From an uncultured Candidatus Saccharibacteria bacterium (GTDB taxonomy: Bacteria; Patescibacteriota; Minisyncoccia; Phycocordibacterales; UBA9973), in assembly GCA_964639185.1 (NCBI GenBank), contig CAZXCN010000004.1:174-64173 (forward strand): a stretch of 64,000 nt of DNA, written 5' to 3'. The translations under genes were made by a program, and so were the position numbers. The notes beneath the pieces are model-generated. The model searched no databases and had not been told where the DNA came from. It saw only the letters and a list, made by a program, of their open reading frames with translations. Numbering within the stretch: the stretch's first letter is position 1; the number at the start of each line of letters is the position of its first letter. This document shows positions 37,334-64,000 of the stretch, one piece after another.

Positions 37334-38122
37334 TCAAACCTGATCACCAACTTTATATTTAAATATTTTACTAGCTGATCTACCTTGTAGAACAATTTCA
37401 AGAAATCGCTTACTCTTGTATCCAGAACTACCTTTTACAAAAGCTGGAGAATGGTCTTCTTTGGGAACGTCCGCCAACTTTTCATAATATTTAGGGTCAA
37501 GTAATGATCTGTTTTCCAGAACATTTACCCATTTATTAGTTGAGGTGGTCTTGCAATTTCCAAAGCAGTCTACTGACCATACAAAATTCTGATAGCCAAA
37601 ATTTTGTATTTGAATTTTGCTTGATGGGACATCTTCCTCATCTACAATCCATTTGGCTAAATAAGGCAAATATTCGTAACTCCTGAATTGTGATTCAGAA
37701 ATACGAATTGCCTCCTCTTCTGGTAAAAATTTACTACACACATTTAAAACATTTGTTTCAAATGTATACTTAAACATTCCAAGCTTTTTAGCTAAAGAAA
37801 AACAATTTGGTGTTCCAATGATCAGCAAATTTTTAAACCAGTGGAAACAGAATGGAATTCCATTTGGATATTGCTCTTTGTTACCACGAGGGGCAACATT
37901 TACAACAATAATACCCTTTGAATCCTTATGCGCATCAATAGCATCAATGAGGTTACCTGAGGCTTCTAGATCGGTGGTAACACCAACAAAAGTAGTGTTC
38001 ACATTACCAAGCAATGCTTGATAGCGGAGAATTTGCCTAGCACGAGCATTGTCGTCACAGCAGTCGGAGATGATTGTTAGTTGCATATTTTTATATTTAT
38101 TTGGTTTTATTTTAAAGAACAA
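37334..38122 (-). CDS. DUF62 / SAM hydroxide adenosyltransferase (fluorinase/chlorinase-like) family protein
   Basis: N-terminal 'LTIISDCCDDNARARQ' (compare TDFGxxDxYVG) and C-terminal 'VWSVDCFGNCKTT' (compare IDxFGNLxTN). Confidence 0.45.
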   Translation of the reverse strand: MFFKIKPNKYKNMQLTIISDCCDDNARARQILRYQALLGNVNTTFVGVTTDLEASGNLIDAIDAHKDSKGIIVVNVAPRGNKEQYPNGIPFCFHWFKNLLIIGTPNCFSLAKKLGMFKYTFETNVLNVCSKFLPEEEAIRISESQFRSYEYLPYLAKWIVDEEDVPSSKIQIQNFGYQNFVWSVDCFGNCKTTSTNKWVNVLENRSLLDPKYYEKLADVPKEDHSPAFVKGSSGYKSKRFLEIVLQGRSASKIFKYKVGDQV

Positions 38123-38287
38123 AAAAAACAGCCCATCGGGGCTGTTTTTTGTATTTCATATTTTAGAAAATTATGCAGTACAAAAAGCAACCTCGATATT
38201 TGGGCTTCGCATCATCATAGATACTGTTGCTTTTGTAAACTTATTCATATTTTTATACTATCAAAATGATAAATAATGTCAAATACC

Positions 38288-39985
38288 CTACACCACCTCC
38301 TTTTGATAACAAGATTCACAATACACTGGTCGGGATTCTTGATTTGTAAAAAATGTTTCAAATGTATTATTACAATACCCTTCGTGTTCATGACTTTCTT
38401 GCGAGCAATCACATTGTCTGTTTACTAGATCAAAACTTCCTCGCATTGCTTCCCTCTTTGCATAACGACAGAAAAAGCAAGCCTCAGGAATAGGAATTTT
38501 TAACCTTTTATAAAATGTAAATTCATCCGGTAAAATTTTGTAATTTCTTTCACATTCTACACAAGCAAGAATTTCCGAGGTTATTGTATCTGGCACGTCT
38601 TCAATACTATCGGGTATGTCTACCTGCTTTATTGTTTCTTTGCCTCTTGTTTGTTGTAATTCATCTTGCCAATGATACCCTTTCTCTGTTGCTTCTTCTT
38701 TTAAAATATCAAGCTGCTCTATAGCCCGAGTTTCGTTTATTCCACAAAGAGCATATTTTGCTGGGAAAAATTCACCATATTCCCCCCTGTTTTTCATATC
38801 TTCGATTATCTGTTCTTTTAATTTAAAATATTCTTCTTTGCTATACCTTTTATTAAGAATCACATATTTCCCAGTCTTTACTCCCACACAGCCAAAAACT
38901 TCTTCACATGAATGACAATCTATACAGTATGAGATATTCCTATTTTTCCAAGATTTTATTGTAGCTAGTGAGTTGTAGGACTGATCGGGAGTAACACACT
39001 CATAGGCAAGCTCTGTTTCCGCTCCACCAGCACAATCATAGCAAGATTTAAAAGTAACCCCATTGTGAGAGTATCTAGAATCTTCAGAAAAAGCAGCATA
39101 TTTTGAATCATGTGTATTTTTACTTCGAACCATTTCTGCTCCTGTACAATTTACACAATTACGAAGATCTGCAAACTTCCTTGGGTGATCTTTTATAAAA
39201 TCTGCAAACTCTTCCTTGGCTTTTTTAGCCCCACTTCTGGTTTCAAGTTTATAGGATTCAATTATTTTGTTATATTCCTCTCTTGTATATTTCTTATTTT
39301 TAAAATAGTGTTGCTTGTTACGTAGGCCCACACACATAAAGCAATCTGTGCATCCTCGTAAATCATAACCAAAGAAACAATCTGTGCATGAAGCGGACCA
39401 ATATATGTATTTACTACGAGCCACCGAGTCAATAACCACCCCTTCATATGTAAATTCGCTCATTTCATTTATACAATGACAATCACAAACATCTTTGGCT
39501 ACATTTATATACATACTATATAAACAATTCTCCATTCGCCATGCCACAAAGCACATTGCAGAATTCTTAGAAAAAGCAATGTCGTTATTGTACAAACAAT
39601 TAACGCTCCCGATACCTTCATCATTTACTATTCCAAGTTTTGGTATAGATTTTAAAAGATTATTAAATTGTTCAAAGAAAGATTTTGTGGGGTCATATTC
39701 TATACCATAATCTTCTGGATTAAATTTGTCTCCAAAGAAGCACTTCGGGCACATTACCTCACTTGCATTATTTTGTGCATATATAGAAATAAACTTTTTA
39801 CTACACATAAAACACTCTCTGTTATACAGAACAAAATCATTGAGCCATGCTAACCTTCTTGTTCTTCTGCATTTTGGGCAGAAAGTTGGTGCAGGCACAC
39901 CCATCTTTTCATAAAAGCCAAAATCATCCGGCTCGATGGCGAAGTCGTTCTTACAGTTCTGGCAATTATGTGTTTCAGGATTCAT
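38288..39985 (-). CDS. Cysteine-rich multi-zinc-ribbon protein with internal repeats, unknown function (paralog 1)
   Basis: About 40 Cys in CxxC/CxDC pairs. Similar N- and C-terminal ribbons ('CQNC...FY.K.GVPAPTFCPKCRR' and 'CVEC...FYKRLKIPIPEACFFCR'). Internal repeats of the form 'C.DC...GC.G...NKxYxxEEY'. Start lies 5 nt after the argS stop. Confidence 0.5.
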   Translation of the reverse strand: MNPETHNCQNCKNDFAIEPDDFGFYEKMGVPAPTFCPKCRRTRRLAWLNDFVLYNRECFMCSKKFISIYAQNNASEVMCPKCFFGDKFNPEDYGIEYDPTKSFFEQFNNLLKSIPKLGIVNDEGIGSVNCLYNNDIAFSKNSAMCFVAWRMENCLYSMYINVAKDVCDCHCINEMSEFTYEGVVIDSVARSKYIYWSASCTDCFFGYDLRGCTDCFMCVGLRNKQHYFKNKKYTREEYNKIIESYKLETRSGAKKAKEEFADFIKDHPRKFADLRNCVNCTGAEMVRSKNTHDSKYAAFSEDSRYSHNGVTFKSCYDCAGGAETELAYECVTPDQSYNSLATIKSWKNRNISYCIDCHSCEEVFGCVGVKTGKYVILNKRYSKEEYFKLKEQIIEDMKNRGEYGEFFPAKYALCGINETRAIEQLDILKEEATEKGYHWQDELQQTRGKETIKQVDIPDSIEDVPDTITSEILACVECERNYKILPDEFTFYKRLKIPIPEACFFCRYAKREAMRGSFDLVNRQCDCSQESHEHEGYCNNTFETFFTNQESRPVYCESCYQKEVV

Positions 39986-39990
39986 AAAAT

Positions 39991-41703
39991 TTACATTTTA
40001 TTTGGGGTTTGGATACCTAGGAGGTATAAGGCGTTTTGCATTGTTGTGTGGAATGCGGAAACAAGGGCTAGGTGGTAAGCTTTGTATTCATTTTCATCAT
40101 TTAGTATATGAGTATTACCGTAGAAACTATTAAAGCTACTTGCAAGCTCGGTAGCATATGTGGCTATATGGTGTGGTTCAAGTTCTGTATACGCGCGGAC
40201 AACCACTTCAGGGAATTGGTACAACATCTTTTCCAAAACTGTTACTTCTGCTGGGGAGTTGTGTGTATCGAAATTGTTTAAGCCAGCTTTTCCAAGTATC
40301 GCATTTGCACGCACCGCTGTGTATTGTAAATACGGACCAGAATCCCCTTCGAAAGATATAGACTTTTCAGAATCATAAATAATATCTGATCCCAGCGATG
40401 AACGTAGTATGGAATATTTTAGTGCGGACACACCTACTACTTCTGCAATATTCTTCTTTTCCTCATCACTCAGTTCCCTCTCAGTCATCTTCTCATAAAC
40501 AGTATCAATAGAGTCGTGTAATAGTGACTCACCAGTAATAATATTACCCTTGCGTGAACTCATCTTGCCACTTGTTAGGCGCATCATGCCGTGAGTAATA
40601 TGCTTCATGCGTGCCTCGTACTCCGGATGGATAAGTGATATAGCTTTTGCTACTACTTTCATATACTCGCCTTGTTCAATGGCAGTCACTACTATAGATA
40701 GGTCTAGGTCCTGTTCCTTTTCAAACTTTGTTATAGTTAGGCCTATTTCCTTTGTCTCGTACAATGGGATGCCTAGTGATGTAATAAATACACGAGTGTG
40801 TAACTTTGGATCATAATTCTCTGCTTTGAAAACTATTGCTCCGTCAGACTCTTCGAAAACATTTGGAATATTGTCCCTCACTATCTTCTCACCAATTGGG
40901 GCCATGACGCTTTCGAAAAAGTAGTGAACAAATTTTGTCCCAAGGATTTTATAAATTTCTTCAAAAGCTTCCAGTGTTACCTCGCGGCCCCAGTCATATA
41001 TTTTGTTTACTTCAACATCACTCCTATCATAAACTTTTTTATTTAGAGCTTCGATTTCCTTCTTTGCATTTTCATCATTATCATAAGCATCGCTACCTTG
41101 TGCATAACAATCCCCTATGTATTGGGCTAGAACTGAAGCAGATGCAGATTCATTTGCTGGAGAGCCAGCCTTGTACATACCATATATTGCTTTTGCTACA
41201 TGCATTCCTACGTCACCTTGATAATTTGCGCGTACAGTTGTAGCCCCTGAGAATTCGACAATGCGTGCCACCGACTCACCTATAGCATTGGTCATGAGGT
41301 GTCCGATATGAAATGGCTTGAAAGGGTTTGGGTCAGTATACTCTACCATTATCTTTTTACCTTTTGATATTTCACTCTTACCCCACTCGCTACCTTTATT
41401 TAATATCTCACCAATTGCATTAGTAAAAAATTCACGAGATAGATAAAAATTAATGAACCCTGCACCAGCTACTTGAATTTCACGTACATGAAATTCACCC
41501 TGATCTTGTCGAAGAATTTCAACAATTTTTTCTGCCAATTCTCTCGGGTTCATCCCTGCCTGCTTTGCATATGCCATAGCCACATTCGTTGAATAATCAC
41601 CATTATTCAAATCAGCTGGGTGTTCAAGTACAATAGCCCCTGCCTGTATACCCAGGTTCTGCAAGGCTTTATTTATACTAGCTTTGATCTCGTCTTGTAT
41701 CAT
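39991..41703 (-). CDS. argS: Arginyl-tRNA synthetase
   Basis: 'PNPFKPFHIGHLMTNAIGESVARI' (HIGH region) and the C-terminal DALR anticodon-binding domain. Confidence 0.9.
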   Translation of the reverse strand: MIQDEIKASINKALQNLGIQAGAIVLEHPADLNNGDYSTNVAMAYAKQAGMNPRELAEKIVEILRQDQGEFHVREIQVAGAGFINFYLSREFFTNAIGEILNKGSEWGKSEISKGKKIMVEYTDPNPFKPFHIGHLMTNAIGESVARIVEFSGATTVRANYQGDVGMHVAKAIYGMYKAGSPANESASASVLAQYIGDCYAQGSDAYDNDENAKKEIEALNKKVYDRSDVEVNKIYDWGREVTLEAFEEIYKILGTKFVHYFFESVMAPIGEKIVRDNIPNVFEESDGAIVFKAENYDPKLHTRVFITSLGIPLYETKEIGLTITKFEKEQDLDLSIVVTAIEQGEYMKVVAKAISLIHPEYEARMKHITHGMMRLTSGKMSSRKGNIITGESLLHDSIDTVYEKMTERELSDEEKKNIAEVVGVSALKYSILRSSLGSDIIYDSEKSISFEGDSGPYLQYTAVRANAILGKAGLNNFDTHNSPAEVTVLEKMLYQFPEVVVRAYTELEPHHIATYATELASSFNSFYGNTHILNDENEYKAYHLALVSAFHTTMQNALYLLGIQTPNKM

Positions 41704-62675: not shown

Positions 62676-64000
62676 CTAGAGTACTTCTTGCTGATAACAT
62701 TTTTCGCAATACACCAACTCTTGCCTATCTGGCGTATATGATGTTTCAAATTCTGTACCACAATTATTGGAACATTTTCTTTTATACAACTTGGGCATAC
62801 GAACATAAGAAAGTCTTTCATAATGCCTACAATTTGGGCATGAATTTGGTAAAGATATATTATGATTTTTATAAAATTCTAATTCTTCTTTCGTGATTTT
62901 AAAAACACCAACACACCTATGACTTTTACATATATTATTATGTGCACATTCTAAAACTTCATCAATAATTGAATCTGAGGTTTTATCTGGAATTCCATCT
63001 TTTGTTAAAGTAGGATTATATTTATTAACTACAGGCTCTCTATATAGGTATCCTGATTCTATAATTTCTTCTCTTATCAAAGGAAAAAATTCTTGAGCCG
63101 CAGATTCATTATAGGCAAAAGCCATACAAATTTGTGGAAAATATTCACCGTATCTATAGATTATTCCTTTTTCATCTACATAAGGCATATCCATCATATG
63201 ATGTCTTATTTTTTTTACTATTTCAAAATATTCTTCTTTTGTATGCTGTTTATTTAAAATACAATACTTATTGCTTTGTAAACTAACACAACCAAAAGTA
63301 TCTTGTACGTTTAAGCAAAAATCAGTATATTCACTATTTACAGTTCCATTACCAATAGAAACAAAATGTGAATTAGTTGATCCTTTTGCCCCACCATGAA
63401 CTTCATACAAAAGTTCTCCTGACAAACTTCCAAATACATCATAAGAATCTTTTAGACCAACTGTCCGCATAACAAATTTACAATTTTCACTTTCTGTTGA
63501 ATGAAAAGACTTATTTACATTATTTGATCTAACAACATTATCCCCTGTTGAATTATTAGACCCCGTTAAATTAGCAAATTTATGAATCGAATTTTTAAAT
63601 AAATCTGAAAATTCATTTTTTAAATTAAAAACACTAGATAATGAGCTAAAGTCAATTTTATTAATCTCATTTTTATATTCTTCTTTTGTTAATTGTTTGT
63701 TTCTGAAAAAATATTGCTTATTCCTTACATTTGAAGACATAAAACAATCTACACAATTAACGCAATCATATAGAAAATTTGAACTAACACAATCTCTACA
63801 ATCTATCAAATAAGATGAATTTGAGCTTTTACTTGTTTGAATACAAGAATAACAATACTGGCAATCAATTATATTATAACAATCCATACAATCATTACAT
63901 CGATCAGCGCTACGAGTATAATAAATCCAATTAGAATCAGTAGTTGTAAAAGATAGATAAATATCTTTTGAATTTAATATATAGTTACCATAATCACAAT
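62676..64000 (-). CDS. Cysteine-rich multi-zinc-ribbon protein (paralog 2), 5'-partial at window edge
   Basis: Reading frame stays open upstream of the listed Met (63887) to nt 64000. Alignable with paralog 1 ('CFMSSNVRNKQYFFRNKQLTKEEYK' versus 'CFMCVGLRNKQHYFKNKKYTREEYN'; C-termini 'YCEKCYQQEVL' versus 'YCESCYQKEVV'). Confidence 0.5.
   Translation of the reverse strand, partial: CDYGNYILNSKDIYLSFTTTDSNWIYYTRSADRCNDCMDCYNIIDCQYCYSCIQTSKSSNSSYLIDCRDCVSSNFLYDCVNCVDCFMSSNVRNKQYFFRNKQLTKEEYKNEINKIDFSSLSSVFNLKNEFSDLFKNSIHKFANLTGSNNSTGDNVVRSNNVNKSFHSTESENCKFVMRTVGLKDSYDVFGSLSGELLYEVHGGAKGSTNSHFVSIGNGTVNSEYTDFCLNVQDTFGCVSLQSNKYCILNKQHTKEEYFEIVKKIRHHMMDMPYVDEKGIIYRYGEYFPQICMAFAYNESAAQEFFPLIREEIIESGYLYREPVVNKYNPTLTKDGIPDKTSDSIIDEVLECAHNNICKSHRCVGVFKITKEELEFYKNHNISLPNSCPNCRHYERLSYVRMPKLYKRKCSNNCGTEFETSYTPDRQELVYCEKCYQQEVL

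Follow-up and report, generated by a model that had tools for sequence, protein, structure and literature searches.

A large protein family of Patescibacteria with putative zinc modules at both ends of a predicted double beta-solenoid

The cysteine-rich gene and its neighbours

The window analysed here, a stretch of DNA of 64,000 nucleotides, carries at 38288..39985 a gene with an ATG start that encodes a cysteine-rich protein of 565 amino acids, assigned by us to subfamily 'A' of a Zn-capped double-solenoid family of Patescibacteria. This gene and all other features given with coordinates below lie on the minus strand. Cysteine accounts for 38 of the 565 residues (6.7%), compared with a mean of 0.8% (sd 0.7%, maximum 2.8%) in the other large ORFs of the window (n=46). 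An earlier sequence-only reading had counted about 40 cysteines, nearly all in CxxC or CxDC pairs; the number was close, but the pairing was somewhat overstated, because the 14 CxxC motifs take in 26 of the 38 cysteines. The protein has no signal peptide, and its net charge is -13 (family mean -6.6). Its matches are numerous, nearly all of full length and include orthologs, which indicates that the gene is genuine. A second, diverged copy of the family with 31% identity to residues 130-565 is located at 62676..64000, upstream of nrdA/nrdB, with its N-terminus beyond the end of the window.

The gene argS for arginyl-tRNA synthetase (39991..41703; Pfam tRNA-synt_1d, DALR_1 and Arg_tRNA_synt_N) precedes the cysteine-rich gene. 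Its TAA stop is followed by ATTTT and then by the ATG of the latter, so that the gap of 5 nt described earlier was verified in the sequence, and no terminator was found between the two genes. Given this short gap and the lack of an intervening terminator, co-transcription of argS and the cysteine-rich gene is plausible. The translational coupling named in the earlier reading gains no support from the sequence, Shine-Dalgarno motifs being essentially absent genome-wide.

The same unit had been thought to extend to the DUF62-like gene downstream (37334..38086; ATG start at 38086; SAM hydroxide adenosyltransferase / chlorinase-fluorinase family). While the argS part of that proposal stands as plausible, the DUF62-like gene is set apart by a separate leader of 201 nt (38087..38287), which contains a promoter-like TTGACA-16-TAGTAT (38255..38282), a conserved Met-rich mini-ORF (38171..38248) and a strong terminator with hairpin and U-run (38121..38150). 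Because these elements intervene, and with the same leader upstream of DUF62-like genes in other genomes despite differing upstream genes, the DUF62-like gene is a unit separate from the cysteine-rich gene. Its product matched SAM_HAT_C in the C-domain only and below the cut-off of 25.5 (E 1.3e-3, 19.5 bits), and no match among PDB sequences was obtained; most of its homologs (n=113) carry PF20257, and some are named 'SAM-dependent chlorinase/fluorinase' by NCBI. A metagenome pattern scan for the leader yielded two true instances only, one known and one new (L094), and a third match due to chance; covariation in six leader sequences was compatible with helices and not significant.

Terminal zinc modules and central units

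Residues 1-83 were homologous to residues 468-559 in an internal self-alignment (E 5e-14), which bears out the earlier claim of homologous modules at both ends, here of zinc type. N-terminal module 1 (39845..39973; residues 5-47; C8, C11, C36, C39) is a treble clef of the zf_Tbcl type followed by an Arg-rich helix and was modelled by AlphaFold2 with pLDDT >90, and its homolog is C-terminal module 1 (38438..38572; residues 472-516; C475, C478, C503, C506), likewise of the zf_Tbcl type. N-terminal module 2 (39728..39823; residues 55-86; C58, C61, C79, C82) is of the CxxC-x17-CxxC ribbon type and has a homologous C-terminal module; C-terminal module 2 (38300..38422; residues 522-562; C525, C527, C538, C556, C559) resembles zf_Tbcl_2 and the CxxC-x17-CxxC ribbon. 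Among 61 diverse family members, used for cysteine conservation as well as for a Pfam scan (match threshold E <=0.01), cysteine is kept in 98-100% at the four positions of N-terminal module 1, in 77-95% at those of N-terminal module 2, in 83-100% at those of C-terminal module 1 and in 100% at those of C-terminal module 2. Four zinc sites per protein, with a pair of Cys4-type modules at each end, are therefore credible on sequence grounds. For the CxxC-x17-CxxC domain, zinc binding has been demonstrated by ICP-MS in small proteins of Methanosarcina mazei (PMC12704099).

Below the respective cut-offs, the query matched Pfam zf_Tbcl (PF13451) with residues 5-44 (E 0.011, 16.1 bits; gathering cut-off 24), zf_Tbcl_2 (PF23477) with E 6e-3 (16.6 bits, cut-off 27) and TIGR04272 with E 3e-3 (17.2 bits, cut-off 36), the last two with the second half of the model only (residues 546-563). 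In the family, zf_Tbcl was matched by 20 of the 61 members at E <=0.01 (best 8.5e-8) and PF23477 by 17 (best E 1.1e-6), and two CxxC pairs with conserved ligands, the zf_Tbcl criterion, were found at both ends. The terminal modules share with PF13451 the motif C-x2-C..F.I..[DE]..FY..P.P..C-x2-C-R, and with PF23477 and TIGR04272 the motif C-x2-C-x17-C-x2-C with 'RPVYC'. A likeness of the end ribbons to TRASH or MYM fingers, which had been suggested, was not recovered: zf_Tbcl and zf_Tbcl_2 were the only Pfam families matched, and the TRASH, MYM and topoisomerase zinc-ribbon models gave no match in the query (E <=1) or the 61 members (E <=0.01). A LuxS match (E 0.006, residues 364-438) was ascribed to chance, since it fell short of the threshold and occurred in 1 of the 61 members.

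Between the terminal modules, two central units of ~115 amino acids (residues 128-243 and 277-392) are homologous in the self-alignment (E 2e-8). The tandem repeats noticed earlier in the middle of the protein thus reflect a true internal duplication with exactly two copies, CTDCFMCVGLRNKQHYFKNKKYTREEY (212-238) and CIDCHSCEEVFGCVGVKTGKYVILNKRYSKEEY (354-386), which form the C-terminal ends of the central units. The AlphaFold2 model of the full protein (pLDDT 86.8, pTM 0.85) has short strands within residues 121-232 and 271-380, and the sequence of the central units shows periodicities of 3 and 12, with 12 the strongest and present in each unit, as is a ladder of small residues (Cys/Ser/Asn). 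Repetitive short-strand coils and solenoid structural neighbours, the criteria of the beta-solenoid class, were both found for the predicted model. The central units are accordingly predicted to be two narrow beta-solenoids that pack with the zinc modules into a single rigid body. Solenoid 1 (39290..39625; residues 121-232), with coils of ~12 residues and a Cys/Ser/Asn ladder, is modelled with only moderate confidence (pLDDT 52-77 over much of its length) and is followed by a conserved 'NKxYSKEEY' strand and helices, read as a cap (39188..39289; residues 233-266). The homologous solenoid 2 (38846..39175; residues 271-380; pLDDT 68-96) leads into a second 'NKxYSKEEY' helix and the acidic connector GEYGEFFP..FGYNET..W.D (38591..38845; residues 381-465), which is among the best conserved stretches across paralogs. 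Since conserved helices follow both solenoids and zinc modules flank them, the formation of filaments by end-to-end solenoid stacking seems unlikely from conservation and model. A role of the solenoids as DNA mimics is not supported, as their net charge amounts to no more than about -4.5 per solenoid.

The sequence-only reading had regarded the protein as a multi-zinc-ribbon, which would amount to approximately 20 sites. This view is not supported, because cysteine is retained (77-100% in the 61 members) at the four terminal sites only and the centre is predicted to be beta-solenoid. Most central cysteines are Cys in only 14-67% of these members and are swapped for Ser, Val or Leu; the query itself has Ser142 where 90% of the orthologs have Cys, and is devoid of Cys206 and Cys209 of the central cysteine run. 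C212, C215 and C218 lack a fourth ligand, and in C354-x2-C357-x2-C360-x5-C366 cysteine is conserved in 40, 67, 24 and 90% of the 61 members. A 4Fe-4S ferredoxin was rejected on the basis of this pattern and of the absence of Fer4 matches in the query and the 61 members, and a heme CxxCH at C354-x2-C357-H358 was dismissed in view of the conservation of C354, which reaches only 40%.

Known zf_Tbcl and zf_Tbcl_2 proteins are small, or the modules form C-terminal tags on other proteins, whereas here a 350-residue double solenoid lies between two pairs of zf_Tbcl plus zf_Tbcl_2 modules. The narrow, Cys-rich beta-helices of ice-binding proteins (Tenebrio molitor AFP 1EZG, spruce budworm AFP 1M8N, ryegrass IBP 3ULT) are alike in fold class only: they are secreted, and those of insects are disulfide-bonded with Thr ladders for ice, while the cysteine-rich family lacks a signal peptide, has replaceable cysteines and shows no significant sequence similarity to them. 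The predicted order of a zinc-finger pair, two narrow Cys/Ser-laddered solenoids and another zinc-finger pair is without counterpart among solved structures.

Family distribution, tandem arrays and ATPase neighbours

Searches with the cysteine-rich protein retrieved 2141 matches in a word index and, in a set clustered at 50% identity, 3278 clusters, almost all of them of full length (520-610 aa), with orthologs being 46-70% identical. At least 560 relatives occur in species-representative genomes, and the best 80 of them were all assigned to Patescibacteria, two despite other labels: the locus labelled 'Burkholderiales' (L061) has 31% GC and CPR synteny, and that labelled 'Ignavibacteria' (L024) is a 2.6-kb contig with 30% GC. 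All sampled family members belong to Patescibacteria, mostly Paceibacteria, and the subfamilies are ancient, with orthologs spread over many candidate phyla-level lineages. These assignments indicate a large family specific to Patescibacteria (CPR).

The sequence-only reading had found no fold that it could name, and our searches agree, as no characterised family was matched by the query or the 61 members. This includes the families named beforehand as refuting ones, i.e. ferredoxins, the DnaJ-type finger (PF00684), whose CXXCXGXG motif is also absent from the sequence, and topoisomerase zinc-ribbon arrays. Searches of PDB sequences with the single sequence and a profile returned nothing significant (best LIM-domain CRP, E 0.22, and TmAFP, E 1.8), and Foldseek with the predicted model gave no PDB match below E 3. 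No defence or phage family was matched in PADLOC or PHROGs, no relatives were found in IMG/VR viral contigs or in plasmid and phage collections, and the literature on cysteine-rich, zinc-ribbon and solenoid proteins of CPR yielded no account of the family.

Gene neighbourhoods were sampled at 83 family loci. Two or more family copies were present at 62 of them, the largest array comprising 8 copies in 14 kb, and the cysteine-rich copy of the window is solitary in its genome. All 197 full-length copies were co-directional, and 92 of 111 adjacent pairs lay no more than 60 nt apart. The arrays mix different subfamilies, same-cluster duplicates making up only 15 of 192 copies, and consist of diverged old paralogs in tandem.

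Among 642 non-family neighbour genes within 6 kb, 28 were T4CP-like, in 22 of the 83 loci, a count in which kinship of genomes is ignored. Twelve directly adjoin family genes, nearly all share their strand, and membrane segments are absent throughout; a representative VirD4-like neighbour matches Pfam TrwB_AAD_bind, DUF87, TraG-D_C and zf_Tbcl_2 (E 8.5e-15). The resemblance to VirD4/TrwB coupling proteins is one of gene neighbourhood, in that soluble relatives adjoin the arrays and the zf_Tbcl_2 module is common to both; unlike VirD4/TrwB, the array-adjacent ATPases lack the N-terminal membrane anchor. At the loci with Pfam-annotated genes, neither a relaxase nor virB4 nor a known recognition domain was seen, and no T4CP-like ATPase gene lies within the 64-kb window. 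Such coupling proteins are reported to be plentiful in Patescibacteria and for the most part without linkage to T4SS genes, with only 148 of 5713 VirD4-like proteins encoded near virB4 (PMC12102498).

Possible functions of the family

We tentatively favour the explanation that the cysteine-rich protein is a cytoplasmic, probably non-enzymatic, rigid bivalent adaptor, whose paralogs cooperate in a process that involves VirD4-like ATPases. Two equivalent zinc-finger heads, fixed in their geometry by the capped solenoids, would dock on partner macromolecules, be it protein or nucleic acid. The ancient paralogs would normally be co-expressed from tight co-directional arrays and would cooperate either as specificity variants or in a hetero-assembly, the latter being suggested by gene order only. 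They would share a process with the soluble orphan VirD4/TrwB-like ATPases that bear a zf_Tbcl_2 module and whose genes often lie next to the arrays. The solitary copy of this genome is most likely co-transcribed with argS simply because of its place in the variable argS-ileS interval. The residues conserved superfamily-wide are Cys, Gly, Pro, Asn, Tyr and the Arg/Glu of the finger motifs; the protein is considered probably non-enzymatic because no candidate catalytic constellation, including His, Asp and Ser, was seen among them.

Alternatively, DNA or RNA may be bound by the treble-clef heads and their Arg-rich helices while the rigid body bridges or measures two sites, which would suit a regulator or an organiser of RNA or of the nucleoid. 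This possibility, which we hold to be rather unlikely, draws on the conserved Arg-rich helices after the second CxxC (CPxCRRxRRLxWRN, CFFCRxxxR), on the family mean charge of +4.4 of C-terminal module 1, on the DNA-binding ATPases of conjugation systems to which the VirD4/TrwB-type neighbours are related, and on the frequent occurrence of zinc ribbons in nucleic-acid-binding proteins. However, no known DNA- or RNA-binding family was matched in the query or the 61 members, and the conserved Asp/Glu of the finger motif may instead be the partners of the conserved Arg. Over its full length the protein is acidic, in the query and in the family mean, and the query's zf_Tbcl-type modules have net charges of 0 and +1 and its ribbons of -2 and -6; this acidity together with the near-neutral zf_Tbcl modules argues weakly against nucleic-acid binding by this copy. 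We regard it as quite improbable that the paralogs are substrates or effectors of the VirD4-like ATPases, delivered by episymbionts to host cells. Orthologs that are 46-70% identical across lineages, in ancient subfamilies, are unlike fast-evolving effectors, folded zinc proteins are poorly suited as translocation substrates, and neither membrane segments in the adjacent ATPases nor relatives in plasmid or phage collections were found. Such cargo would nevertheless fit the position of diverged paralog arrays next to coupling-protein-like ATPases and the lack of a signal peptide, owing to which any export would require a dedicated system; Patescibacteria are host-dependent and carry T4SS, but most of their T4CPs are far from virB4 (PMC12102498).

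The replaceable central cysteines, with the deviations of the query at positions 142, 206 and 209, make a multi-metal protein with approximately 10-20 zinc-ribbon or Fe-S sites for metal storage or redox very unlikely, and no ferredoxin, rubredoxin or metallothionein family was matched in the query or the 61 members. A functional partnership with arginyl-tRNA synthetase or translation would be in line with the 5-nt distance to argS and with the location of some relatives near rpsP/trmD or a tRNA_bind gene, but it is hardly probable: the adjacency to argS, whose conservation was checked as the earlier reading had proposed, recurs at only 2 of the 83 related loci, both syntenic relatives, one relative has argS-DUF62-ileS without the family gene, the closest ortholog (L007, 68% identity) has unrelated neighbours, and neighbour-gene clustering over the 83 loci revealed no recurrent translation gene. 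The position after argS is a local accident. A beta-helix enzyme, for instance like hexapeptide-repeat acyltransferases or gamma-carbonic anhydrases, is equally far from what we expect, as the scores reach only the level of generic solenoids, the strongest periodicity is 12 and not the 18 of the left-handed hexapeptide-repeat beta-helix, no Hexapep Pfam match was obtained in the query or the 61 members, and a conserved His, Asp or Ser constellation is missing. LpxA and GlmU have 18-residue coils, trimers, inter-subunit active sites and the Hexapep signature, none of which was seen in the cysteine-rich family.

For annotation, the locus teaches that not every CxxC is a metal site and that spacing alone is insufficient for operon membership. 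The genomes of Patescibacteria are among the smallest in bacteria and contain a large share of uncharacterised genes, and at sizes of 0.6-1 Mb the eight 565-aa copies in one 14-kb locus would make up about 1.5-2% of a genome. As the family is conserved in many lineages of Patescibacteria, it must serve lineage-specific core biology, and its recurrent proximity to soluble VirD4-like ATPases provides a concrete, testable handle. It is conceivable, although we think it unlikely, that the family and the zf_Tbcl_2-bearing orphan VirD4-like ATPases make up a so far unrecognised machine inside the cells of Paceibacteria and specific to them, in which a hexameric ATPase would drive or load an assembly of several zinc-capped solenoid paralogs, e.g. 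to handle DNA or protein in the course of episymbiosis. If so, this would explain the retention of as many as eight consecutive 565-aa paralogs in tiny genomes, as well as the role of thousands of orphan patescibacterial T4CPs.

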